64,000 nucleotides of DNA from Gammaproteobacteria bacterium (GCA_013151045.1 JAADIY010000038.1:311-64310), one strand, 5' to 3'; shown: positions 30,669 through 64,000, numbered from the stretch's first letter. Notes: generated by a model not told the origin, from the sequence alone. Numbers and translations are program-made.

Positions 30669-32408
30669 ATGCTTACCAATACAACTACTGAGATCGTTCC
30701 CGTCGGTAAAGCCAAAATAATACGCGTCTTGCATATCGAGGATGATCGCTTCGACGCACGTTTTATATCAGCAGCCATCGCCGGTCATCACTGCCACATT
30801 ACCCATAGTAAAACTCTAGCGAACGCCATTAAACGGCTCAACCGCTATGCACATAATGTAGTGTTGCTTGATTTGAATCTGCCCGACTCACAAGGGCTTA
30901 ATACTATAGATACTCTACATGAACACTTCCCTGAGCTAGCTATCGTTGTCTTATCTAGCAACAACGAAGAAGATAACGCATTAGCAGCCGTGCGCCTCGG
31001 CGCTCAAAACTATATACCCAAAAATGTCGCCGATGCAGCACACCTTTTACGTACGCTGCATTATGCAATTGATCGCAAAGAGTACGAACTCAACTTAATA
31101 AGTTTGGCTTTTCACGATCCTGTTTCTAACTTGGCCAGTCGAAATTTATTTTTCAATACTTTACAACAATCTATGCAGCGATGCGATCGCACAAAAGAAC
31201 GCATGGCGCTCATGTTTCTCGATCTTGATCATTTTAAAGAGATCAATGATCAATATGGCCATGATGCCGGTGATCACGTATTGCGCGAATGCGCGCAACG
31301 GCTTTCTAAATGTGTAAGAAAACAAGATTTAGTCGCAAGACTAGGTGGCGATGAATTCACTGTTATTCTTGAGAATATCAAAGATTGTCGTAATGCCAAG
31401 CGTATCACCCAAAAAATTGTTAACAGCTTAAGTCAATCGATTGAAATTAATGGCATGCAAGTTAACATCAGCGCTAGTATCGGCATTTCATTTTATGATG
31501 GCCAGGTAGAAATTCCTGCCGAAACACTGATAAAGCAAACTGACATCGCCATGTATCACGCCAAAAAAGCAGGCCGCAATACCTACAAATACTTTATGCG
31601 CAACATAAAAGAGATTAATTCTCCAGGCGACAATATTTCTGCCCTACTCAATCATGCTTTAGAACACAATGAATTTCATCTTCACTATCAGCCTCAAATC
31701 GATGCCGAAACACATGAGCTAGTTGGCGCTGAAGCATTATTACGTTGGAACAATAAGGAGCTAGGCTCAGTATTACCGTCCGTATTCATTCCCTTACTTG
31801 AAGACAGCGGCCATATTGTTGAAGTCGGTGAGTGGGTATTAAAAACAGCCTGCCAAAACTGGGCAAGCTGGGTCAAGAAAGGCAAAATCAATACAAACAC
31901 GACCATTTCCGTCAATCTCTCAGCATTGCAATTTACCCAGGAAGACATTGCAAAAACCATTGCTAAAATACTTAGCAAAACCGGCCTCCAAGCCAGTCAA
32001 CTCGACTTAGAGCTCACTGAAAGCACCTTGCTCAGCAACACCGAACGTAATTTACATACGTTGAAGAAAATCAAAAACCTCGGTGTTAGCCTAACTATCG
32101 ATGACTTTGGTACCGGCTTTAGTTCGTTGCCTTATCTAAAACATTTTTGCTTTGATCGCTTGAAAGTTGACCGCTCTTATATCAACCATGTTCTCGACAA
32201 CTCCGTCGACGCGGCAATTTCATCGTCGATTATTAACTTAGCAAAAAACTTAGACCTCAAAGTCATCGCAGAAGGCGTAGATAGCTGGGATAAAGTCAGC
32301 CGTGTTAAATCTTATGGTTGCACAATCATGCAAGGCTTCTATTACAGCAGACCTCTTGCGGCGAATACCTTTTTAGAGCGTTATGCCTGCGCCGCTATTG
32401 TTCATTAA
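30669..32408 (+). CDS. response-regulator receiver-GGDEF-EAL protein (c-di-GMP turnover)
   Basis: N-terminal REC domain (LLDLNLPD), intact GGDEF (RLGGDEF) and EAL (EALLRW) motifs. Confidence 0.88.
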   Translation: MLTNTTTEIVPVGKAKIIRVLHIEDDRFDARFISAAIAGHHCHITHSKTLANAIKRLNRYAHNVVLLDLNLPDSQGLNTIDTLHEHFPELAIVVLSSNNEEDNALAAVRLGAQNYIPKNVADAAHLLRTLHYAIDRKEYELNLISLAFHDPVSNLASRNLFFNTLQQSMQRCDRTKERMALMFLDLDHFKEINDQYGHDAGDHVLRECAQRLSKCVRKQDLVARLGGDEFTVILENIKDCRNAKRITQKIVNSLSQSIEINGMQVNISASIGISFYDGQVEIPAETLIKQTDIAMYHAKKAGRNTYKYFMRNIKEINSPGDNISALLNHALEHNEFHLHYQPQIDAETHELVGAEALLRWNNKELGSVLPSVFIPLLEDSGHIVEVGEWVLKTACQNWASWVKKGKINTNTTISVNLSALQFTQEDIAKTIAKILSKTGLQASQLDLELTESTLLSNTERNLHTLKKIKNLGVSLTIDDFGTGFSSLPYLKHFCFDRLKVDRSYINHVLDNSVDAAISSSIINLAKNLDLKVIAEGVDSWDKVSRVKSYGCTIMQGFYYSRPLAANTFLERYACAAIVH

Positions 32409-53777: not shown

Positions 53778-53825
53778 ATGAACCATATTGCTGGACCTGA
53801 TATCTACTGTTATCCTCATGAATGA
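53778..53825 (+). other. 15-codon upstream ORF (MNHIAGPDIYCYPHE) with strong SD, stop overlapping start of downstream GGDEF-EAL gene
   Basis: AAGGAG at 53762-53767, ATG 53778; TGA 53823-53825 overlaps main ATG 53818 (ATGAATGA). Confidence 0.35.
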
Positions 53826-56130
53826 GTCTATTTATGAGGTGACAATGGAGGGTTTAAGTAATTCCACCACACTGCTGCTTGAAGAAATTCAGCAGTTACG
53901 TGCCGAGCTAAGCACTACCCAGCTAGAAGCACAAAAGCGCGCAACCGAACTTGATAAAAGCGAAGAACGCTTGTCTCTAGCCATGCGCTGGGCCAACGAT
54001 GGCTTATGGGATTGGAATATTGAAACTAACGAAGTCTATTACTCTCCTCGCTGGAAAAGCATGTTGGGCTATGAAGAGAATGAGCTTGATAACAATATCA
54101 ATACTTGGGAGAACCTAGTCCACCCTGACGATAAAAACATGGCAATACAAGCCGCTCAGGATTATCTAGCGGGTCGAGCAGACTCATTTGAAATTGAAAT
54201 ACGAATGTCACACAAAGATAATCGCGATATTTTTGTACTGTCCCAAGCATTCATAGTCGGTCGCGAGCCTGATAATAAGCCAGTTCGCCTCGTTGGCACT
54301 CATATCGATATCACTGAGCGCAAAAAAACAGCAGCGTTCAATAACAATAATGCCAAAATTCTAGAGATGATTGCCATAGGGAATCCCGCATCTGATATCT
54401 ATAATGCTATTGCCTTAATGTATGAAGACCGTCACCCAGGCTTACGATGCTCCATGCTCGAGCTGCATGGCAGCAAACTTATGCACGGGGGAGCGCCAAG
54501 CTTACCTAGCGAATATTGTAAAGCCTTGCACGGCCTAGAAAATGGCCCCAGTGTTGGCTCATGTGGAACATCGACTTTCAGCGGGAAACGTGTTCTTGTC
54601 GAAAATATTGAAACAGACCCTAAATGGGGAAACATTAAACACCTAGCATTGCCTCATGGTATGCGGTGTTGCTGGTCCGAGCCGATTAAAAGCTCTTCTG
54701 GAGACGTGCTAGGCGCGTTTGGTATGTACTATAACCACCCTGCGTTACCAAATGAAGACGAATTAAATGACCTTAGTTCTGCGGCACGACTAACAAGTAT
54801 TGTTATGGAGCGAGATCAAGCTCAAAAGCGTATAAGAGCATTAGCTTATAGCGATGAATTGACTAAACTTTCTAGTCGCGCCCACTTTTACCTGCACCTT
54901 GAAGCAGCCATCAAAACCTCTAGTCGATACAAACATCGTTTTGCCCTGCTATATATTGATTTAGATGGCTTCAAGGGTATTAATGATAGTCTTGGCCATG
55001 ATGCTGGTGACTTACTCCTGATAAATATTGCAAAACGTTTGCAAAGCACCTGTCGTGACATTGACTTTATTGCACGCCTCAGTGGCGACGAGTTTTGTAT
55101 CCTCATTAGCGAGCTAAGTGATAATTATACAGCTGCCAATGTGGCGCAACGGTGTCTTAATACTGTATCACAACCTGTCGAACTTTCTACGAGAAAGCAT
55201 ACACCAGCATGCAGTATTGGCATCGCGCACTACCCTGATGACGGCAACGACCTAGCAAGCTTAATCAAGGCAGCAGACACTGCTCTTTACGCAGCAAAAA
55301 AAAATGGCAAGAACCAATACGCTTTCTATAAACCAGAGCTCACCCGTCAAGCCGAACATCGTTTCCTAGTTGAACAATATCTACGAGAAGCAATTGAAAA
55401 TCAGCAACTTTCTCTCGTCTATCAACCACAAATCAATCTTAAAACCGGAAAAATTATCGGCGTCGAGGCATTATCACGCTGGGATCACCCGATATTAGGC
55501 GGAGTTCCACCGGTTGAATTTATTGCCACAGCTGAAAGAATCGGCATGATTAAACCGCTCACTGAATGGGTACTAAGCACCGCTTGCCAACAAGCCGTTG
55601 CCTGGAAAAAAGAAGGCTTTCCTGTACCGCGTATGGCAATCAATATTTCGTCAAGTCATTTTATCGATAAAGAAATTGTGCCACTAATCAAACGAATTAT
55701 TAATGAAACAGGAATAACCCCGACCGAATTAGAATTGGAAGTGACCGAAAGCGTTGTCCAAACTGACCCTAGAAACCTTTCCATTTTTCAAAACTTAAAA
55801 AGTCTTGGTATTCAACTAGCCATTGATGATTTCGGAACCGGCTATTCATCTTTTGCTTCTCTTAAACACCTTAAAGTTGATTGCCTAAAAATAGACAAAT
55901 ATTTTGTTGATGATATGCTTGACGATGAAAAAGCATTACTCCTTATTGGCTCAATGATAGAGATGGGCCATCAGTTGGGTTATAGCATTGTTGCCGAAGG
56001 GGTGGAAACGTCAGAACAGTTTTATACTTTAAAAAATCTAGGTTGCGATACTGCTCAGGGATATTTATTTAGTAAACCCGTCAAAGCTCAGGCTATTGCT
56101 AAATTAATAAAAAATGATTATAACATTTGA
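53818..56130 (+). CDS. PAS-GAF-GGDEF-EAL signalling protein
   Basis: ORF from TTG 53788; first ATG 53818 (MNESIYE). PAS (WDWNIETNEVYYSPRW), GAF-like region, GGDEF (RLSGDEF), EAL (EALSRW, DDFGTGYSS). Confidence 0.88.
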   Translation: MNESIYEVTMEGLSNSTTLLLEEIQQLRAELSTTQLEAQKRATELDKSEERLSLAMRWANDGLWDWNIETNEVYYSPRWKSMLGYEENELDNNINTWENLVHPDDKNMAIQAAQDYLAGRADSFEIEIRMSHKDNRDIFVLSQAFIVGREPDNKPVRLVGTHIDITERKKTAAFNNNNAKILEMIAIGNPASDIYNAIALMYEDRHPGLRCSMLELHGSKLMHGGAPSLPSEYCKALHGLENGPSVGSCGTSTFSGKRVLVENIETDPKWGNIKHLALPHGMRCCWSEPIKSSSGDVLGAFGMYYNHPALPNEDELNDLSSAARLTSIVMERDQAQKRIRALAYSDELTKLSSRAHFYLHLEAAIKTSSRYKHRFALLYIDLDGFKGINDSLGHDAGDLLLINIAKRLQSTCRDIDFIARLSGDEFCILISELSDNYTAANVAQRCLNTVSQPVELSTRKHTPACSIGIAHYPDDGNDLASLIKAADTALYAAKKNGKNQYAFYKPELTRQAEHRFLVEQYLREAIENQQLSLVYQPQINLKTGKIIGVEALSRWDHPILGGVPPVEFIATAERIGMIKPLTEWVLSTACQQAVAWKKEGFPVPRMAINISSSHFIDKEIVPLIKRIINETGITPTELELEVTESVVQTDPRNLSIFQNLKSLGIQLAIDDFGTGYSSFASLKHLKVDCLKIDKYFVDDMLDDEKALLLIGSMIEMGHQLGYSIVAEGVETSEQFYTLKNLGCDTAQGYLFSKPVKAQAIAKLIKNDYNI

Positions 56131-56649: not shown

Positions 56650-57297
56650 TTATTCGTTTGATGATGTGCTAAAGCTTATTTTCAATTCATTAATTCGACG
56701 TTTAATTCCCACCGCCAATGCTGAATTTGGATTCGCCGCCAACCATTGCTGCCAAGTCTTTACCGCCTGCGAGTGATTTTTAAGCTCAACATAAACGACA
56801 CCTAAATTAAATAAGGTAGCGCCATCATCAGGTGAAAGCTTAAGGTTTTCTTCTAGCAAGCGGCGAGCTTCATCAACATTGCCTTGTTCAAGCTTGATTG
56901 ATGCCAGATTAGAACGAGCATCGATGTGTTGCGGATTCAACTGCAAAAGACGTTCATAAAGTGGCGCCGCATCGTCGAACCTTCTAATCATCAAGCTTGC
57001 ATTAGCAAGCCCCATTAGCGCCATCTCATCATCTGGATTTTCATTTAAAAGCGTGCGTAAAAACTGGATTTGCTGCACTGGATTAGACGAACCTATATCC
57101 GGTGGATGGGTGGATGGTAACTCCTGCTTTGATCCGGCCGCATCAAGATCAGCCAGCGCTATAATCTTTGGCGCTAATGGTGTTGCAAGAGCCGCTTTAG
57201 AATCATTAGCGCCAAATTGATTGAGTGCAATGATGGTTGACCCTGCGACCAAAACCAGGGTTGGTACTACGAAGCGATAATCACGCAGTAATTTCAT
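56650..57297 (-). CDS. TPR-repeat protein with N-terminal membrane anchor
   Basis: ORF to 57315; GGGAGG SD favours ATG at 57297 (MKLLRDY…); TM segment then 3-4 TPR units; 26 nt after upstream gene. Confidence 0.7.
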   Translation of the reverse strand: MKLLRDYRFVVPTLVLVAGSTIIALNQFGANDSKAALATPLAPKIIALADLDAAGSKQELPSTHPPDIGSSNPVQQIQFLRTLLNENPDDEMALMGLANASLMIRRFDDAAPLYERLLQLNPQHIDARSNLASIKLEQGNVDEARRLLEENLKLSPDDGATLFNLGVVYVELKNHSQAVKTWQQWLAANPNSALAVGIKRRINELKISFSTSSNE

Positions 57298-57323
57298 TGT
57301 TAAACGACCTCCCATAGCAGCAA

Positions 57324-59735
57324 CTACTTTATATCACCTGAATCAGCATGATGAGCGATGCCTTTATTGGTCTCGATAAAGTTCACAATCGAGGCTTCAT
57401 CAAACTCATCAAATGTTTCAAGCTTGGCCCATGCAGTCACAGCAATTTTTGATTCCATTAGCGGATACGGCGCCAAAATTACATACTCAGGATAACGTTT
57501 TAAAATATCCTCAAGTTTGGCAACCGTATCAGGGCAGGCTTTACGACAATTATATTGAATCACCACCCCCCCAACCTTTAAGTTATAGACTTGCAATGCT
57601 AACGGCAACGGCACTTGATAAGCACCCCAATCGGCGATGAAGGGTAAATGTGCCCCTGAAGTTGGCGGGTTGCTACTATAAGGTTCATGCGTTTCAAGAG
57701 GATGGTAAATATACTCACCGCTTGCTTGTGATGCAGTCTTACCCTTCTCGGCACCGTCTTCTTTCTCAGATAATTTTGGTACACGCCGGGTATCCCCCAA
57801 CAAGGCCAAGTCAAATTTCTCGTCAGGAATACCGCTGTTTATCTTAACCTGATCGATCTTTACCTCTTCGGTCCTGCCATTATCGAGCACACGCTCTAAT
57901 CGACCAGGCATGGAATACATTTTGTCTATTTTTTTATAATCGTAAAATTTAGTTTCAATGATACCGCCAAACTGCTTGCTTTCTGTTTGGTGCCCTTCCG
58001 CTTTGTTTACCGGAAATTTTTCTATCAGGTTTGTCGGGTAAGCTGTATTTGCGTCCACCCAAAGTTGCGGCACGGCTTGCCCTGTTTCGTTGGCGCCAAT
58101 AACATAGTAGCGATGTGGTTCATGGCCTTCTGCATGCTGATGATCGTGATCTGTATGAGAGCCGTCTTTTTCTTCTTTTTCCTCAAATTCCATGACTACA
58201 TCCACTGCGATGCCACTTCGAAGATAAGAACTGCCGGGTACATCACCGGCCAAACGCTGTATTGCCTCATCAACCGATAGACTTGATAAGCCATAGAGCG
58301 AAGATAATAAATTTTGTCGCGGTGTCACCCAAAAACGACCGTCCTCAAGTATGGATACACTTGTCCCAGCTTGCGCCAGGCGCACTAGCCCACCTTCTGC
58401 TTCGGTTCTTAACCAGTTTGGAGCTTTGTAATATTGCATTCGCTGAGAAAGCGTCGAGGGATTTTTGGCTGGCTGTGTCTCCACATCCTTTTCTTCACCA
58501 TTCTCTTTTGCACTGACGCCAACTGAATCCACTTTCCAGGTTGCCGTTTCGCGCCATGAAAGGTCAGAATACGGTGCGCTCACACTTTGCATTTGCTTAA
58601 TAATCTTCTTCACTAGTTGCCGCGAACGTCCCTCGCTGTTTAGCAAGTCATCACGGACACTGAGCGGCACCTGTACTAACTCGACATCCATCGGCACATC
58701 ACCCGTCGAAAAGGATCGAAGAGTTTTCAGGGTCTTGCCATCTAATTCAATGAGTTCACGGTTGAGTTGATCCAACACATAAAGCTTATCGCCATCGAAG
58801 CTCCCCTCGACTAGACCACCATTGATCGTAGCAGCGTTAATTTCTGTAATAACCGGCCACGGGCGCACTGAGAAATCTGTCTCATAAAGTACAACATAAC
58901 TTTTTTTGATACCTAAGCCGCGCCAACATAAAACTGCCATTTTAGTCTCATCGGGAGACAGCAATATTGCCTGTGGTGCAGAACAAGTTGGAACTCCACG
59001 ACCATCACCATGCACATTAATCAGGCTAAGCCCGTTGGTCTCGCTATCGGCTGTCAACAAAAAAGGCTCTTTTGCCGACACAATAATACTGGTCGGGCCA
59101 AGCCCCGTACGTTGAGTGGCAGGACTAACTGGTGATGGCGTCGAATTTTTTAAATCATAGGGATAGTTAACAATGTAAGAATAGCGTTCACTTTCAACTT
59201 TAGATTGCGGATCAAAACGCGCCATATAAAACCCCGCGCTATCCTGCCGTTGAACCAGATCGTAGATCTTGTTTATTTCTGTGACCTTAACGCCGAGCCT
59301 ATCACCATTTTTAGGGTCAATTTTATAAAGCCCTGAACGCGGCCAACTAAACGTAACAAACTGCTCTCCATCATTGCTAAATATACCTGGCCCACGATAA
59401 GGAAGCACATGTTTAATTTCATGATCAGTTAGGTCAATTATCGCTGTTGACTCCGAGTACCAATGCTGAGCCAATAGTTGTTTACCATCCGGCGAGGAAA
59501 CCAAACGCCAAGGACCCGCACCCGCATAGATCTTGCGTAGCGTTTTTCCAGATGAAAGATCAACAACCTGAATGTTGTTATTCGCTGCATTAGCAATGTA
59601 AGCTAATGTAGTTTTCTCAATGGGGGAAGAGACAGAAGAATTCGTTACCTCAGCAGCGCTTGCTCCGATACCAACAAAAAGTGTCAACATTGTTAAAAAT
59701 GATATTAGAACTCGCATAAACTTCTTACACCTCAC
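57324..59735 (-). CDS. secreted multidomain protein: YVTN-type beta-propeller + LolA-like middle domain + His-rich linker + C-terminal DUF3105-like domain
   Basis: 803 aa; signal peptide (MRVLISFLTMLTLFVGIGASA); N-terminal repeats typical of YVTN beta-propellers; HTDHDHQHAEGHEPH linker; C-terminus (…SGAHLPF…VYNLKVGGVVIQY…YVILAPYP…IAVTAWAKLE…) matches DUF3105 shape with NLEHG-like motif altered. Confidence 0.75.
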   Translation of the reverse strand: MRCKKFMRVLISFLTMLTLFVGIGASAAEVTNSSVSSPIEKTTLAYIANAANNNIQVVDLSSGKTLRKIYAGAGPWRLVSSPDGKQLLAQHWYSESTAIIDLTDHEIKHVLPYRGPGIFSNDGEQFVTFSWPRSGLYKIDPKNGDRLGVKVTEINKIYDLVQRQDSAGFYMARFDPQSKVESERYSYIVNYPYDLKNSTPSPVSPATQRTGLGPTSIIVSAKEPFLLTADSETNGLSLINVHGDGRGVPTCSAPQAILLSPDETKMAVLCWRGLGIKKSYVVLYETDFSVRPWPVITEINAATINGGLVEGSFDGDKLYVLDQLNRELIELDGKTLKTLRSFSTGDVPMDVELVQVPLSVRDDLLNSEGRSRQLVKKIIKQMQSVSAPYSDLSWRETATWKVDSVGVSAKENGEEKDVETQPAKNPSTLSQRMQYYKAPNWLRTEAEGGLVRLAQAGTSVSILEDGRFWVTPRQNLLSSLYGLSSLSVDEAIQRLAGDVPGSSYLRSGIAVDVVMEFEEKEEKDGSHTDHDHQHAEGHEPHRYYVIGANETGQAVPQLWVDANTAYPTNLIEKFPVNKAEGHQTESKQFGGIIETKFYDYKKIDKMYSMPGRLERVLDNGRTEEVKIDQVKINSGIPDEKFDLALLGDTRRVPKLSEKEDGAEKGKTASQASGEYIYHPLETHEPYSSNPPTSGAHLPFIADWGAYQVPLPLALQVYNLKVGGVVIQYNCRKACPDTVAKLEDILKRYPEYVILAPYPLMESKIAVTAWAKLETFDEFDEASIVNFIETNKGIAHHADSGDIK

Positions 59736-59997
59736 TAAAAACTAATTTGAACTACTGATACTAAACATGAGCATATGACACATATAAATGTAATGTCATG
59801 TACTGAAGGTTTGCCCATGAATGAAATACGTAAAGAATCTTATTTCGCGCAGCTTAAGAAGTGGACAACTCAAGCACTAAGTGCTCTATTAGCTTGCTAC
59901 TTTGTAATAATCGATCATAGCAATGTGTCAGTATTTGGGCGGGCAACTGATAACAACTGCAGATGTACATTAACCTTTCAGTTAAAAATCTATGTCC

Positions 59998-60027
59998 TGA
60001 TCGGTTGCTAATATTAGCAACCGATCA
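59998..60027. repeat. perfect 30-bp palindrome (15-bp arms, no spacer) between cytochrome gene and beta-propeller gene
   Basis: tgatcggttgctaat|attagcaaccgatca; 44 nt downstream of cytochrome stop; possible terminator/attenuator or protein-binding site. Confidence 0.6.
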
Positions 60028-60070
60028 CCGCCCATCTCTTCATAAAACTGACACTGTCCACATACCGAGA

Positions 60071-63000
60071 CTAACGTCGCCGTCCGTGACGGCCACCACT
60101 TCTCGTTGTCGTTGTCGTCGCAACGGTAGTAGTAGCAGGAGCAGGAGCGCTTGTTGACGCAAGTGCAGCAGATTGCCCGGTAGCAAAACCAAGTGGCACT
60201 GAAGTATCACCTCTGCCATTAGTACGGCTAGTGGCAGTCTGGAAGCTCCAGCTAACTGCTGCATTACTACAGTTATTTGAAAAATCACAAATACCTGCCG
60301 CTAATCGTGCTGTATAAGTAGCCCCCGTGCGTAAGAAGATATCATGAGCAAACAAGGCCCATGTACCATCACCGATCTGATCAACAAATGCCGGTACTGG
60401 TAACCCACGCGAATCGACCAGGGTAAACGTTCTATTGTCTACTCCTGTCACTGGCTCGTTAAAAGTCACTTTAGCAACAAAGTTGCTGTAAACACTGCTT
60501 GCGCCATTTACCGGATAAGTTTCTGTAACACTCGGTGCTACATTATCCGCAGCCAAATTAATCACCCAGCTCTTCACCTCCATAGGTACAGGTGGCGCGC
60601 CTTCAACCACTGCAGGCTCAGTAGATGGCGTACGCCCACCATCACATAGTCCCTTCAGAACACAAGGTTCTAGCACTGGCAAAGGAGCGTTTGCCGGATC
60701 AGCGAGATACGCTGCTGACTCTTGGTCCAGGTCAGTGTTAGCCAAATTACCCAGGAACTCCTCAGCAATAATCGCCTCTAGAGACTGGTAATACATCGCC
60801 GCAGTAACAGCAATAGGGCCCACCGCATTAGCTGGAATGATGACCGAATAACGATCACTCAGATCTGCAACTGCGGCAGCCATAGGCAATGGGCTCAAAC
60901 GTGTGTCAATCAGAAACGAATCATCAAACAGATCGCCATCACCATCGACATCCATATACTGTGGAATACCGCGCGGGTTATTTCGATCAATCGCCACACC
61001 GCTAGCATCAATAGGCACGCCATCATCGTTAGTGACTATATTGACCGCCGTTGCATAAGCCAGCGCCAGAGTCGGGCAGCCATCACCCAGCGTAGCAACT
61101 GCTCTCATTATGCGAGCATAAGGATCTGGTGATCCAGCTCTCACACTCCAGTCACACCCTGGGAAGTTAGGGTCGACCATCTCTTCGGTGGTGAAGTAAC
61201 CGACACCGGTAGAAGTGCGATCCCACACTGAGTCGTGAATGTCTAACTCAGCACCTGTGGCCGTATCAAAAGCTCTCACTGCGACCCAGCTAATACGCCC
61301 TTCAGGAAAACCTGTGGGGAAATTATGACCGCTACCATCGTTAGTCACCGTCAATGTCGATATCCCTACAGTGTCACCAGCATTAGCGGTAACCGCTGCT
61401 GACAGATCCAATGACACGGCATTACGTAGACGATCCCAGGCCATCCGCGAATGATGCGTCGGTGTGCCTGTACCCGTCGAGTTGTAATAGGCCCAATGGA
61501 ATTTACTACCTGAGCTAGCAGACGTAAAGCTGGCACTCGATAGCACTGGATAGGGTTGCACCGCACCACTGCTGCCACCTCCGCCATGGCGACGACCACC
61601 ACCGCCAGTAGCAACCGTAGCACCGAGAAGGTTGGTTACATATGCATTGCCACCGACGAAATGATGGGTGTATAAAGCGTCACGCACAGGCCCACGAAAG
61701 CCAACCACCCCTCTAAGCGGTGCAATTGACCTGCCGTTGCTATACAAAGTCTGGGTCGTACCAGGCTGACCAAAATCCTGCTGCATATGACAGGTTTGAC
61801 AATCACGCTTAAAAGCGGGATCAAAGTTTGCCTGCGTTCTGCCAGTTACGGGATCAATACGGTCTGCATAACGACTATTTGACCACTCGCTATAGGTTCG
61901 CTCAATCGGAAAGCCACCTACCCATTGTTCTAATGGGTTAAGAACCGTGACTGGATTAGTCACATCATGACAAGCACCGCAAAACTCGGAGCGTTCAAAT
62001 TTGACATGATAGTAACCTTCATGCCCGCCATGACGACCTCCGCCTCCGCCGCCACGACGGCCACCACCGTGACCACCACCAGCAAAACGATCTTGGTTAG
62101 CTATCGTGGTATCAAAAACGTCGCTGATGTACGGATCAACACCGCCAACAGCGCCATTCCATATTGGTCCAAAACGCGCTGGTCGGTTAATAGCATTGGG
62201 CGACAAACGGAACGTACCACCACCAATACCGTAGCCTAAGTTAGGGCTGTTCGCATCCGGAATGTTACCTACGTTACCTGAATTACCCAAGATACTCGAA
62301 CGTGAACCACTACCCTGAGAAGGTATATATTCCACCCCTGATTGCACATAGGATGAATAAGGTGTGCGCTTGGATTCTGCATTGGTATGACAGACCGCGC
62401 AAAATATACCGCGCTTACCACTTGCAGTATTGCGATAAAGCGACTGCGCCGAGTCTATGACTGTAGCATAGGCTCTGTCAGTGCCATTTGATGAGGTGGG
62501 ATCATAGTTGGGGATGACCGCTGCGTGCTCAAAATTACTGCCATCACCCAGGTCATCTATATTGACGCCGGCAAGTGGCACCGCATCAATATAGTTAGAG
62601 GGCATATGACAACGCGAGCAAAAGTCATCAAAAAGCGAACCGGACCCTGTCGTAGTCGCCGTCGCACCACCTCCGAGATTAAATCTAGATGAAGTGCCGT
62701 CGATAGCAAACGGGTTGAGGTCATTGCAAGCATAGGCCTCGGTACCGTCTATCGCCCGGCCTTGCGCATTAAGGTTCTCAAGCACATCGCCGCAACCGTC
62801 GGTCGCTGTCGCGCGTGCCGTTAACAAAAATACGGCTTGCCAGGCTGGATCGCGCCAGGCATTGGCCTTCATAGAGCCATTCCATTCACTGAAAATACGA
62901 TCATGACAACCTGAGCACTGGCCAGGATTGTTAACATTATTCCAGTCGCTCTCAAAGGGCGGCGCATGGCCTGTGAAGCCACCAAAAAAACCCGCTTCTT

Positions 63001-63139
63001 GCAAATTATAAGGTGCCGGCTCGGCAATACGGTTTGGTAACTCGCCATGGCGAGCATGAGCCTGTGAAACAAAACCGATCAATCCAATTATCGCGCCCGA
63101 CACTGCAAGCGCACGTAGCCAATGTGCTTTAACATCCAT
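60071..63139 (-). CDS. secreted pentaheme c-type cytochrome with G/R/H-rich inserts and C-terminal Ig-like (SbsA/Big_5-type) domain
   Basis: ORF to 63307, but signal peptide and GGAGA SD support ATG 63139 (MDVKAHWLRALAVSGAIIGLIGFVSQAHA). Five CxxCH: CSGCH, CSRCH, CAVCH, CGACH, CQTCH; two CxxCH…SEW.(G/N)S units; GGGHGGGRRGGGGGGRHGGHEG and GGGGRRHGGGGSSG inserts; C-terminal Ig-like domain; poly-Thr + RSGGRHGRRR tail. Confidence 0.8.
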   Translation of the reverse strand: MDVKAHWLRALAVSGAIIGLIGFVSQAHARHGELPNRIAEPAPYNLQEAGFFGGFTGHAPPFESDWNNVNNPGQCSGCHDRIFSEWNGSMKANAWRDPAWQAVFLLTARATATDGCGDVLENLNAQGRAIDGTEAYACNDLNPFAIDGTSSRFNLGGGATATTTGSGSLFDDFCSRCHMPSNYIDAVPLAGVNIDDLGDGSNFEHAAVIPNYDPTSSNGTDRAYATVIDSAQSLYRNTASGKRGIFCAVCHTNAESKRTPYSSYVQSGVEYIPSQGSGSRSSILGNSGNVGNIPDANSPNLGYGIGGGTFRLSPNAINRPARFGPIWNGAVGGVDPYISDVFDTTIANQDRFAGGGHGGGRRGGGGGGRHGGHEGYYHVKFERSEFCGACHDVTNPVTVLNPLEQWVGGFPIERTYSEWSNSRYADRIDPVTGRTQANFDPAFKRDCQTCHMQQDFGQPGTTQTLYSNGRSIAPLRGVVGFRGPVRDALYTHHFVGGNAYVTNLLGATVATGGGGRRHGGGGSSGAVQPYPVLSSASFTSASSGSKFHWAYYNSTGTGTPTHHSRMAWDRLRNAVSLDLSAAVTANAGDTVGISTLTVTNDGSGHNFPTGFPEGRISWVAVRAFDTATGAELDIHDSVWDRTSTGVGYFTTEEMVDPNFPGCDWSVRAGSPDPYARIMRAVATLGDGCPTLALAYATAVNIVTNDDGVPIDASGVAIDRNNPRGIPQYMDVDGDGDLFDDSFLIDTRLSPLPMAAAVADLSDRYSVIIPANAVGPIAVTAAMYYQSLEAIIAEEFLGNLANTDLDQESAAYLADPANAPLPVLEPCVLKGLCDGGRTPSTEPAVVEGAPPVPMEVKSWVINLAADNVAPSVTETYPVNGASSVYSNFVAKVTFNEPVTGVDNRTFTLVDSRGLPVPAFVDQIGDGTWALFAHDIFLRTGATYTARLAAGICDFSNNCSNAAVSWSFQTATSRTNGRGDTSVPLGFATGQSAALASTSAPAPATTTVATTTTTRSGGRHGRRR

Positions 63140-63440
63140 ATTAATTCTCCATTTGGGTTTATTCCACTCAAACCCACTTAACTTTAATTCAGCCTCATTT
63201 CTTAGCCAAATTTTATTTCCGTTGATTAATGTATCAGCTTTCGTTACCAATAAGCAAATCAAGTTTGCAACAACCCTGTCCAAACTCGGGCATAGACCGC
63301 CAGCCAAAAATTACTAGGAGTGCACGACATGAATACATCAGCAACAATACGCCAACTGTTTCAGTTTATCCGAAGCCATTCTGAAAAATGGATTTTGCCA
63401 GCAATAATTCGTCGGCACTGCAACAGTGAATTTTTTCTAA

Positions 63441-64000
63441 CTAACGGTTCACCGAGCTTTTTATCAAAAAATATTTGTTAGTCATCTTAGGAAAATCACC
63501 AATCAAATTACGCAACTTATCAAGATCACTAACATCACCTCGATATGCGATACGATCAAACATTGCAGCCAATGCTAATGTAGATTGAGCCAACTCAGGC
63601 CTCTCCACAGCAACGCGTCTCGCAAAGCTAGATACCGTTTCACCTTGGCTTCGTTTTATTCCTAAATTCTCAGCCTTCCTAATAAATTTATCTATCAAAC
63701 GAATTGCAATAGGCAATGGGCGCTTGCGATTAATAAGATAAAAATAGAGAAACAGAGCCAAACCAAGTGCTAAGCTAGCAATAACAACAATCATCGCAAT
63801 ACGCCATGGCTCAGCACCACCAAATATTTTTTCTAAAACACCTTTTTGTGATTGACGATCATAACTAACCACCCATCGATTCCACACATAACCGACAGCA
63901 TCAACACGTTGTCGTAGCGATTTCATCCAAGGAAACTCACCATACGCGCCGCTGCCAACAAGCTGTAAATCTGACTCACTTAAGGCATCGGCAATTCCAT
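63441..64000 (-). CDS. DUF4129-like domain membrane protein (5' end beyond window)
   Basis: Frame remains open from 63926 to window edge (…GIADALSESDLQLVGSGAYGEFPWMKSLRQ…); TM helix (IAMIVVIASLALGLALFLYFYL) then C-terminal domain with DUF4129-like pattern (…TVSSFARRVAVERPELAQSTLALAAMFDRIAYRG…). Confidence 0.6.
   Translation of the reverse strand, partial: GIADALSESDLQLVGSGAYGEFPWMKSLRQRVDAVGYVWNRWVVSYDRQSQKGVLEKIFGGAEPWRIAMIVVIASLALGLALFLYFYLINRKRPLPIAIRLIDKFIRKAENLGIKRSQGETVSSFARRVAVERPELAQSTLALAAMFDRIAYRGDVSDLDKLRNLIGDFPKMTNKYFLIKSSVNR

Follow-up and report, generated by a model that had tools for sequence, protein, structure and literature searches.

The element considered here is a gene for a c-type cytochrome with five heme-binding CxxCH motifs, found on the minus strand of a 64,000-nucleotide stretch of DNA from a Gammaproteobacteria bacterium (GCA_013151045.1 JAADIY010000038.1:311-64310), which as a whole we call the window. 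The window is ordinary chromosome (it includes gatAB, mrdA, ppk, ppx, dnaG and rpoD), and within it the cytochrome gene is followed on the same strand by two further genes, one for an exported protein of ~800 residues with an N-terminal YVTN beta-propeller and a C-terminal DUF3105 domain (the partner), and one for a TPR protein (Table 1). As judged from sequence comparisons, the cytochrome is an expanded, lineage-decorated member of the pentaheme superfamily of c552 and MccSep-ExtKL, and many of its homologues in other phyla are encoded beside operons for alternative complex III (ACIII).

Table 1. The cytochrome gene, its parts and the adjoining genes, in window coordinates (aa, amino-acid residues of the encoded protein)
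Feature	Residues	Position	Strand	Remarks
Cytochrome gene	1-1022	60071..63139	minus	Pentaheme precursor of 1022 aa; stop codon 60071-60073; from ORF (open reading frame) list and translation
Sec-type signal peptide	1-29	63053..63139	minus	MDVKAHWLRALAVSGAIIGLIGFVSQAHA / RHGELPNR; read from sequence
Heme cap domain	30-572	61424..63052	minus	c552/MccSep-type pentaheme core with large family-specific insertions
Heme 1, CSGCH	75-79	62903..62917	minus	Followed by FSEWNGSMK; kept in nearly all homologues
Codon 91, AAG (Lys)	91	62867..62869	minus	Candidate distal heme-ligand position
Heme 2, CSRCH	174-178	62606..62620	minus	Inside invariant D-x-F-C-S-R-C-H-M-P-x-N-Y
Heme 3, CAVCH	247-251	62387..62401	minus	
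Insert 1, GGGHGGGRRGGGGGGRHGGH	354-373	62021..62080	minus	Ends at invariant His373; clade-specific, variable length
Heme 4, CGACH	387-391	61967..61981	minus	Followed by invariant DVTN
Loop PIERTYSEW	411-419	61883..61909	minus	Invariant; includes YSEW
Heme 5, CQTCH	447-451	61787..61801	minus	Conserved K-R-D just before
HHFVGGN	492-498	61646..61666	minus	His492 invariant, also in compact relatives and c552
Insert 2, GGGGRRHGGGG	512-522	61574..61606	minus	Clade-specific; up to 23 residues in P0002
Ig-like stem and linker	573-850	60590..61423	minus	Beta-sandwich with two insertions, then conserved Cys826/Cys832 linker
Stem loop NDGSGHNFPTGFPEGR	600-615	61295..61342	minus	Invariant; includes NDGSGHNFPTG (600-610)
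Big_5 bacterial Ig-like domain	865-968	60236..60547	minus	Pfam PF13205 and Foldseek
Tail	969-1022	60074..60235	minus	Ser/Ala/Thr-rich linker ending RSGGRHGRRR; clade-specific
Hairpin GATCGGTTGCTA-ATAT-TAGCAACCGATC		59999..60026	minus	Perfect 12-bp stem, then T-run; 45 nt past cytochrome stop
Partner gene		57324..59735	minus	YVTN beta-propeller and DUF3105
Partner loop KEEKDGSHTDHDHQHAEGHEPH	520-541 of partner	58113..58178	minus	His/Asp/Glu-rich, clade-specific; from alignment of 12 orthologues
TPR gene		56650..57315	minus	221 aa; CcmH/CycH (apocytochrome chaperone) type; from Pfam

The ATG at 63139 (MDVKAH, giving 1022 residues) is a likelier start than a further in-frame TTG at 63307 on the minus strand, since a GGAG resembling a Shine-Dalgarno sequence lies 7 nt 5' of it and the N-termini of the homologues align there. 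The gene is real, intact and under selection, with a dN/dS of 0.084 against its counterpart at locus L001 that indicates strong purifying selection. Its GC content of 0.51 was considered as a foreign signature and rejected, because it stems from amino-acid composition and GC at third codon positions (0.42) falls inside the range of the window (0.37-0.48). The signal peptide has neither a lipobox Cys nor a twin-Arg motif, the mature N-terminus, HGELPNRIPEPAPY, is kept throughout the family, and the protein is a Sec-exported pentaheme c-type cytochrome, probably of the periplasm. A script scan of the 1022 residues found exactly five CxxCH motifs (at residues 75, 174, 247, 387 and 447) and no CxxCK. 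The lack of the latter, along with the lack of any match to Pfam Cytochrom_C552, led us to reject membership in the NrfA family, whose members have a CxxCK heme, fall under PF02335 (Cytochrom_C552) / TIGR03152 and differ in architecture.

The link of the window protein to solved structures is significant but only transitive. In phmmer searches of 1.8 billion proteins it matched two compact pentaheme cytochromes, P0187 (463 aa, E 1.2e-33) and P0259 (466 aa, E 1.8e-22), which are its nearest relatives outside the family and are uncharacterised; P0187 in turn matched c552 of Thermochromatium tepidum (5ZE8, E 1.4e-13), MccSep (9WT8, E 1e-6) and the NCBIfam ExtKL model (E 2e-21, under that model's cut-off). 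Direct searches of the PDB gave, with the family profile, at best a 22-residue match to c552 (E 0.088) and, with the window protein alone, matches to separase that we judged spurious. The joint alignment places the five CxxCH motifs colinearly with those of c552 and the compact relatives in an alpha-helical cap, and residues 30-800 correspond to the pentaheme core as a whole, i.e. a helical five-heme cap followed by an Ig-like stem. Insertions break up this core in the segment that joins hemes 1 and 2, downstream of heme 2, of heme 3 and of HHFxGGN, and at two places within the stem, and a Cys-containing linker and the Big_5 domain extend it C-terminally; compared with c552, which has ~435 residues, the window protein adds ~400 residues of insertions plus Big_5. 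The large insertions account for the sparse hemes that had drawn attention to the protein in the earlier note: the gaps between hemes are 99/73/140/60 residues, against a family median of 88/66/125/54 and 44/32/51/38 in P0187. The motifs themselves extend over 377 residues (C75 to H451), so that the five motifs described in that note are there and the spread of ~470 residues it gave them is too wide.

Structure prediction with AlphaFold2 (AF2) gave, for the full-length protein with 33 sequences, a model in which only the beta-rich C-terminal half was confident (predicted local distance difference test score, pLDDT, below 50 for residues 26-566). For residues 1-580 with 121 sequences the pLDDT was 78.5 and the predicted template-modelling score (pTM) 0.84, with both Gly/Arg/His-rich inserts and residues 408-427 remaining as low-confidence loops. 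The stem, to which no Pfam model matches (residues 573-850), was delimited by the confident beta strands of the full-length model and by alignment to the stems of P0187, c552 and MccSep; it holds an acidic loop, DVDGDGDLFDD (residues 730-740). Big_5 is the sole significant Pfam domain of the protein (E 1.7e-10, 42 bits, above the gathering cut-off of 23.6), cytochrome models stay sub-threshold and nothing in NCBIfam exceeds its cut-off, no sorting-signal model being among the matches. By Foldseek the Big_5 region resembles Ig-like domains of LdtMt2, of the S-layer protein SbsC and of CopC. Thus the Ig-like (Big_5) C-terminus proposed earlier is borne out, although it does not occupy the last ~110 residues: 54 residues (...TTTVATTTTTRSGGRHGRRR) come after it. 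By analogy, the five hemes would be arranged as the branched chain known from c552, MccSep and NrfA.

MccSep/ExtKL, a multiheme selenoprotein and the polysulfide reductase of Geobacter sulfurreducens, shares with the window protein the cap, the stem and a loop directed towards heme 2. In MccSep a five-heme alpha-helical cap is followed by an Ig-like stem; hemes 1, 3, 4 and 5 are bis-His, heme 2, the active-site heme, is ligated by His/Cys239, and Sec325 reaches heme 2 from a D-G-U-P stem loop (10.1101/2025.11.18.688581; heme numbers here follow that source, and heme 2 of the window protein corresponds to its active-site heme). The window protein, which is far larger, differs at precisely these positions. 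Its stem loop reads SGHNFPTG-F-P where that of MccSep reads AGHSIPDG-U-P, and in the phmmer alignment with 9wt8 (counterpart loop AGHSIPDGX) Phe611, invariant in 33 of 33 sequences, takes the place of Sec325. The same alignment sets the MccSep Cys239 loop against the Cys-free PIERTYSEW, with the Thr/Tyr of PIERTY as counterpart of Cys239, although alignment confidence is modest there. All Cys residues of the window protein outside the heme motifs fall into pairs resembling disulfides. The NCBIfam ExtKL model (NF040886) scores 16 bits against the window protein, for a cut-off of 250, and matches just residues 74-95. A Sec/Cys polysulfide reductase was therefore rejected, given this score, a stem loop with no Sec or Cys and the lack of a Cys239 equivalent. 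Since the Sec/Cys chemistry has been exchanged for a different, equally conserved pocket, a substrate other than polysulfide is implied, and the family extends the c552/MccSep superfamily by a branch in which another conserved pocket stands in place of Sec/Cys.

The conservation of the two loops is very high. Positions of PIERTYSEW are kept in 116-121 of 121 sequences (the exception, 417, is S, T or A), and the loop NDGSGHNFPTGFPEGR is invariant in 33/33 apart from positions 606, 607 and 609, giving a stem-loop signature GHxFP(T/S)GFPEGR that is invariant or nearly so. The same can be said, across the family, of the five CxxCH motifs, His373, His492, PIER, E418 and GH...GFPEGR. We propose that His373, His492, His605 and residue 91 supply the distal ligands of four hemes. 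With these candidates so assigned, heme 2 is left with no obvious protein ligand, and it would be the reactive centre, its pocket, with invariant Glu, Arg, Thr and Tyr, being formed by the PIERTY(S/T)EW loop and the GHxFP(T/S)GFPEGR stem loop. At position 91, Met is found in 117 of 121 sequences of the family, the four closest relatives of the window protein among them; the compact relatives, c552 and MccSep have His, and Lys occurs only in the window protein and in P0038, P0041 and P0061, a change that recurs independently. Heme iron can take Met as well as Lys as a ligand, and the recurrent Met/Lys exchange is suggestive, if unproven, of a heme-ligand role for this residue. The window's clade has also lost the Cys117/Cys149 pair of the family and carries another, C116 and C138 (~62726-62794), in a remodelled loop that joins heme 1 to heme 2.

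In c552, a protein that has no assigned function (PMC11976967), the motif CANCHEDIYRQWKGSMH is the counterpart of the heme 1 region of the window protein. The residue that follows GSM is His in c552 and Met or Lys in the window's family, and c552 has a Cys in the loop that reads PIERTY in the family. The compact pentahemes P0187 and P0259, on the other hand, have all hallmark motifs of the window protein, including PIERTYxEW, YTHxFxGGN and NxGAGHxLPTG, while lacking all of the insertions and Big_5 and having His after GSM. Their genes adjoin rubrerythrin, hemerythrin or NIR_SIR genes, not ACIII or DUF3105 genes. Both P0259 (L084:6517-7026) and P0187 (L085:5789-7965) have rubrerythrin as a neighbour, and P0187 has hemerythrin and a small NIR_SIR protein as well. 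Such neighbours may be an anecdotal hint at small oxidant or oxyanion substrates.

The earlier note had seen in FSEWNGS (residues 83-89) and YSEWSNS (residues 416-422), which follow hemes 1 and 4 and are both there as noted, the traces of a heme module of NrfA/HAO type (CxxCH...SEW) that had been duplicated within the protein. We reject this as extremely unlikely. The two motifs are similar and short, and they lie 4 and 25 residues past their respective CxxCH, so that the supposed units are not equivalent. An hhalign comparison between the halves of the protein (alignment Neff 2.0) gave 23% probability over 23 columns and paired heme 2 with heme 5, i.e. the wrong hemes. YSEWSNS is no copy of FSEWNGS either, as it belongs to the invariant PIERTY(S/T)EW loop, which P0187 and P0259 also have, and FSEWNGSM is part of a C-x-x-C-H...W-x-G-S-M-H signature common to c552 and MccSep. 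The order of the five hemes is the same in the compact relatives and in c552, leaving no duplication specific to the window protein.

The family has at least 610 members, all derived from metagenome-assembled genomes (MAGs), most of them from Acidobacteriota or Myxococcota, and identity across phyla is 45-55%. Each of the best 120 homologues is full length, at 899-1049 aa, and shares 49-96% identity with the window protein, and homologues, where named, bear only the label "Ig-like domain-containing protein". A HMMER scan of 1.8 billion cluster representatives returned just a handful of full-length clusters at 50% identity, from which we take the family to be compact and strongly constrained. 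Searches of the literature on DUF3105 with cytochromes, on ACIII with multiheme proteins or Acidobacteria and on ACIII with Ig-like domains found no description of it, and no curated model for it came to light either. The nearest relatives come from the MAGs Gammaproteobacteria bacterium NORP163 (97%) and NORP174 (94%), whose prefix presumably refers to the North Pond subseafloor aquifer study.

Gene context was counted over 79 genome loci, all from MAGs: Acidobacteriota (Thermoanaerobaculia, Vicinamibacterales, Terriglobia), Myxococcota (Kofleriaceae, Polyangia, Anaeromyxobacteraceae) and a few others, including Ca. Entotheonella. At 57 of the 79 the homologue is linked to actABCDEF, the genes of ACIII. 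Usually (45/79) it shares the strand of these six genes and begins 1-136 bp downstream of actF; a divergent act operon lies 1.7-2.1 kb upstream at 10 loci, and another act arrangement was seen at two. At nine loci the homologue is followed instead by a YVTN-propeller/DUF3105 protein of 600-900 residues, and 13 have neither, eight of these having too little flanking sequence to judge. The act-linked loci lie among L011-L083 (e.g. L035:413-10784). In a neighbour-joining (NJ) tree rooted on the compact pentahemes, the ACIII-linked clade stands apart from the DUF3105-linked clade, in agreement with gene context, and the window protein sits on a long branch inside the latter. One Thermoanaerobaculia MAG (DASYTJ01) has both kinds (L012 and L064), one beside a divergent act operon and the other followed by a DUF3105 protein. 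The split in the tree, this MAG and the absence of act genes from the window together identify the two contexts as those of paralogues, and their presence in one genome indicates distinct functions, not lineage-specific rearrangements.

Many abundant bacteria of soils and the sea have ACIII in place of the bc1 complex; the acceptors known for ACIII are small carriers or cytochrome oxidases. To our knowledge the extra ACIII subunits so far, ActG and ActH, are small and heme-free, whereas the homologue takes the seventh position, directly after actF, in 45 genomes. The linkage is strong and apparently unreported, no such seventh gene being described in the literature searched, and a five-heme protein of ~1000 residues, tightly conserved and with a gene that directly follows actF in dozens of genomes from Acidobacteriota and Myxococcota, would amount to an unrecognised outlet of ACIII or to an extra subunit. 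ActA (pentaheme), ActB (FeS) and ActC/F (NrfD-like) parallel NrfB, NrfC and NrfD, so an ACIII operon with a pentaheme resembles NrfABCD, and it is on account of this resemblance, one step removed for the window's own clade, that we propose a role as terminal oxidoreductase.

In the DUF3105 clade the partner gene sits after the cytochrome gene at all loci. The window's partner matches Pfam DUF3105 (E 7.6e-21) and the propeller repeats of PDB 1l0q (E 1e-16), and its dN/dS of 0.092-0.099 indicates strong purifying selection. The partners of the window, L001 and L047 have the loop KEEKDGSHTDHDHQHAEGHEPH, which every orthologue from Acidobacteriota or Entotheonella lacks. The TPR gene (TPR_CcmH_CycH, E 1.8e-12, 47.8 bits for a cut-off of 42) likewise occurs in L001 and L047 and is absent from the other loci, which confines it to the gammaproteobacterial clade. 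Cytochrome, partner and TPR genes move together in this marine clade, as a single cassette. DNA similarity to L001, L005 and L047 (79-92%) is confined to window positions 56678-63141, ending at the cassette edges, and the flanks of the cassette in L001-L003 hold integrases, a DDE transposase and other island-type genes; similarity that stops at the borders and flanks of this kind suggest that the cassette is mobile. A search of the plasmid database gave no match. The hairpin (-22 kcal/mol) lies in the 336-nt spacer between cytochrome and partner genes and is kept, with compensatory changes, in NORP163 (L005) and L001; it is probably a terminator or attenuator between the two genes, or it may be a protein-binding palindrome. 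Promoter and terminator scans gave no more matches than in shuffled sequence.

The remaining peculiarity of the window protein is its three Gly/Arg/His runs, namely insert 1, insert 2 and the C-terminal GGRHGRRR. The earlier note had recognised the two inserts and placed them at 61990-62060 and 61566-61620, somewhat off their actual positions (62021-62080 and 61574-61606). They are lineage-specific: among the 120 homologues only P0001-P0004 (82-96% identical, forming the window's clade) have such runs with His. Close homologues with the same kind of inserts thus exist, and none has an annotated function. All five clade proteins keep the G/H/R composition at both sites and an RHG(R/G)RR-type end after a Thr-rich linker, and the lengths differ in every member (6-20 residues at site 1, 10-23 at site 2). 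In P0003 insert 2 is GGGGCCGGGHHGG, with two adjacent Cys where the window protein has Arg-Arg. Both inserts are predicted to be disordered (insert 1 has pLDDT <50 in AF2), and both sites are already variable loops across the wider family. The tail, for its part, has no hydrophobic stretch in residues 969-1022 and matches no NCBIfam CTERM model, and we agree with the note that it holds no recognisable sorting signal, be it PEP-CTERM, GlyGly-CTERM or another. Where the tail lies, most sister-group proteins have another domain of Big_5 type; all frames and the 336-nt intergenic region were searched for a remnant of it in the window, and none was found. No other ORF of the 64-kb window has comparable loops. 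A GGGHGGH at 2212-2232, unrelated to the inserts, lies in an ORF that we took by eye to be a peptidyl-tRNA hydrolase.

Whether the runs are functional is a matter of roughly even odds against neutral slippage, and we favour function, the His-rich loops binding metal or charged surfaces; they resemble the His-rich loop of periplasmic zinc-binding proteins and Gly-His copper-binding repeats. It is possible, if somewhat short of an even chance, that the inserts and the tail are neutral low-complexity expansions, produced by slippage in GGY-rich DNA and tolerated in surface loops. Disorder, lengths that differ in each clade member and sites that are variable in the wider family would all be expected of slippage, and so would the fact that the inserts resemble each other no more than composition predicts. 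The earlier note had called their DNA near-repeated, whereas the best 30-nt match between them is 24/30, compared with 22.2 +/- 1.4 in random synonymous recodings, 17% of which reach 24/30, i.e. the similarity is within the expectation from composition. Codons are mixed and Tandem Repeats Finder detects no array at the inserts, so they are not recent pure repeats. On the strength of the recodings and the lack of an array, a common origin of the two inserts at DNA level was rejected. Also difficult to reconcile with slippage are the G/H/R composition that five clade members keep at both sites together with the basic RHGRR-type C-terminus, and NORP163, whose insert 1 has the same length and composition despite ~10 synonymous differences. 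Moreover, the partner gained a His-rich loop in the same lineage, and since that loop is non-Gly in composition, slippage in GGY tracts cannot account for it.

It is hardly credible that the odd segments are artefacts of assembly or of a frameshift, or that the gene is decaying. GC-rich low-complexity tracts are hard to assemble, the second Big_5 is missing and the M91K change is near-unique, all of which could be read in that way. However, the inserts and the tail recur in the independent assemblies NORP163 and NORP174, in P0001-P0004 and in 23 contigs of P0002, the reading frame is intact, dN/dS is 0.08 and the lost domain has left no remnant in any frame. The many synonymous differences in insert 1 of NORP163, an independent MAG, dispose of the artefact that the earlier note had allowed for.

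Overall, the best explanation, to which we give a probability of about 0.55, is that the window protein is a Sec-exported, expanded PHC-type pentaheme, likely an oxidoreductase or redox module, that carries lineage-specific decorations. It would act as a terminal oxidoreductase or dedicated redox module on a small periplasmic substrate other than polysulfide, with a heme 2 pocket of MccSep geometry in which Thr/Tyr and Phe replace Cys239 and Sec325. In the ACIII-linked clade, ACIII as quinol dehydrogenase would feed the homologue in the way that NrfBCD feeds NrfA, a likeness of function only that implies no family membership. The cytochrome of the window's clade would have the propeller/DUF3105 protein as its working partner and the TPR protein as a dedicated apocytochrome chaperone, and the disordered His-rich loops of cytochrome and partner may capture divalent metal ions or bind charged surfaces. 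In this respect the window's lineage is a natural experiment, in which both cassette proteins have gained His-rich disordered loops and a metal or mineral hypothesis can be tested in a subseafloor setting.

Several points weigh against this explanation. None of the homologues retrieved comes from a cultured organism, the NJ tree carries no bootstrap support values, and Foldseek with the model of residues 1-580 gave no significant PDB match (E 1.3). The ligand and active-site assignments lean on the MccSep alignment where phmmer confidence is low, and on an AF2 model that has no hemes and predicts residues 408-427 poorly. The link to ACIII stems from the paralogous clade and may not apply to the window's gene, tblastn with ActA-F having found no act genes in the 64-kb window. 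The DUF3105 motif HNLEH has become YNLKV in the window's clade, and with it the pair may have changed function. The variable length of the loops is equally what neutral slippage gives. Finally, His493 is a further conserved His, spare among the ligand candidates, and the family could thus be a pure electron carrier in which all hemes are six-coordinate.

This last point leads to a non-catalytic relay, which would pass electrons from ACIII or other periplasmic carriers to another protein or to an acceptor that is insoluble or extracellular, with the Ig domains and the basic tail serving to dock or adhere. Ligand candidates suffice for five six-coordinate hemes (His373, His492, His493, His605, Met91). 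Big_5 is a domain typically seen in surface proteins, binding to anionic surfaces would be in keeping with the Gly/Arg/His loops and the polybasic tail, and a role as electron conduits or nanowire-like proteins has been discussed for relatives of c552 (PMC11976967). We nevertheless hold a relay to be on the unlikely side. Very high conservation over ~850 residues across phyla, including E413, R414, E418 and D171 near heme 2, is more enzyme-like; MccSep, the closest characterised relative, is catalytic, and its active-site loops are the two most conserved loops here; and no lipobox, porin gene or secretion signal speaks for display at the outer surface. That the protein polymerises outside the cell into a cytochrome filament, as the archaeal AvECN does, is very unlikely. 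Its fold relates it to c552, and a relation of c552 to AvECN was drawn by Baquero et al., as cited in PMC11976967, yet nothing in this analysis points to polymerisation, the window protein is ~3x larger with extra globular domains, and the operons contain a membrane quinol oxidase or a propeller protein.

The oxidoreductase explanation can also be taken further, to a reading that we regard as rather improbable in its entirety. The family would then be the catalytic end of an unrecognised ACIII-fed branch with a new heme-2 site: in soil Acidobacteriota and Myxococcota a giant PHC-type enzyme with Glu-Arg-Thr-Tyr and His/Phe loops would reduce or oxidise a periplasmic substrate, and the DUF3105-paired paralogue would have been transferred as a three-gene cassette into subseafloor marine Gammaproteobacteria, where His-rich loops and the change of the Met91 ligand to Lys would let the cassette act on a metal ion or a mineral-associated substrate.

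As for other genes near the cassette, the ORF directly upstream of the cytochrome gene (63441-63926, minus strand) has a DUF4129 domain. A DUF4129 link was rejected as coincidence, since a DUF4129/MoxR/DUF58 cluster occurs only in L004, L006 and L008, from closely related Thermoanaerobaculia, and not in the window. The window also encodes two GGDEF-EAL c-di-GMP proteins on the plus strand (53788-56130 and 30669-32408), one of which contains a PAS domain and adjoins the cassette.

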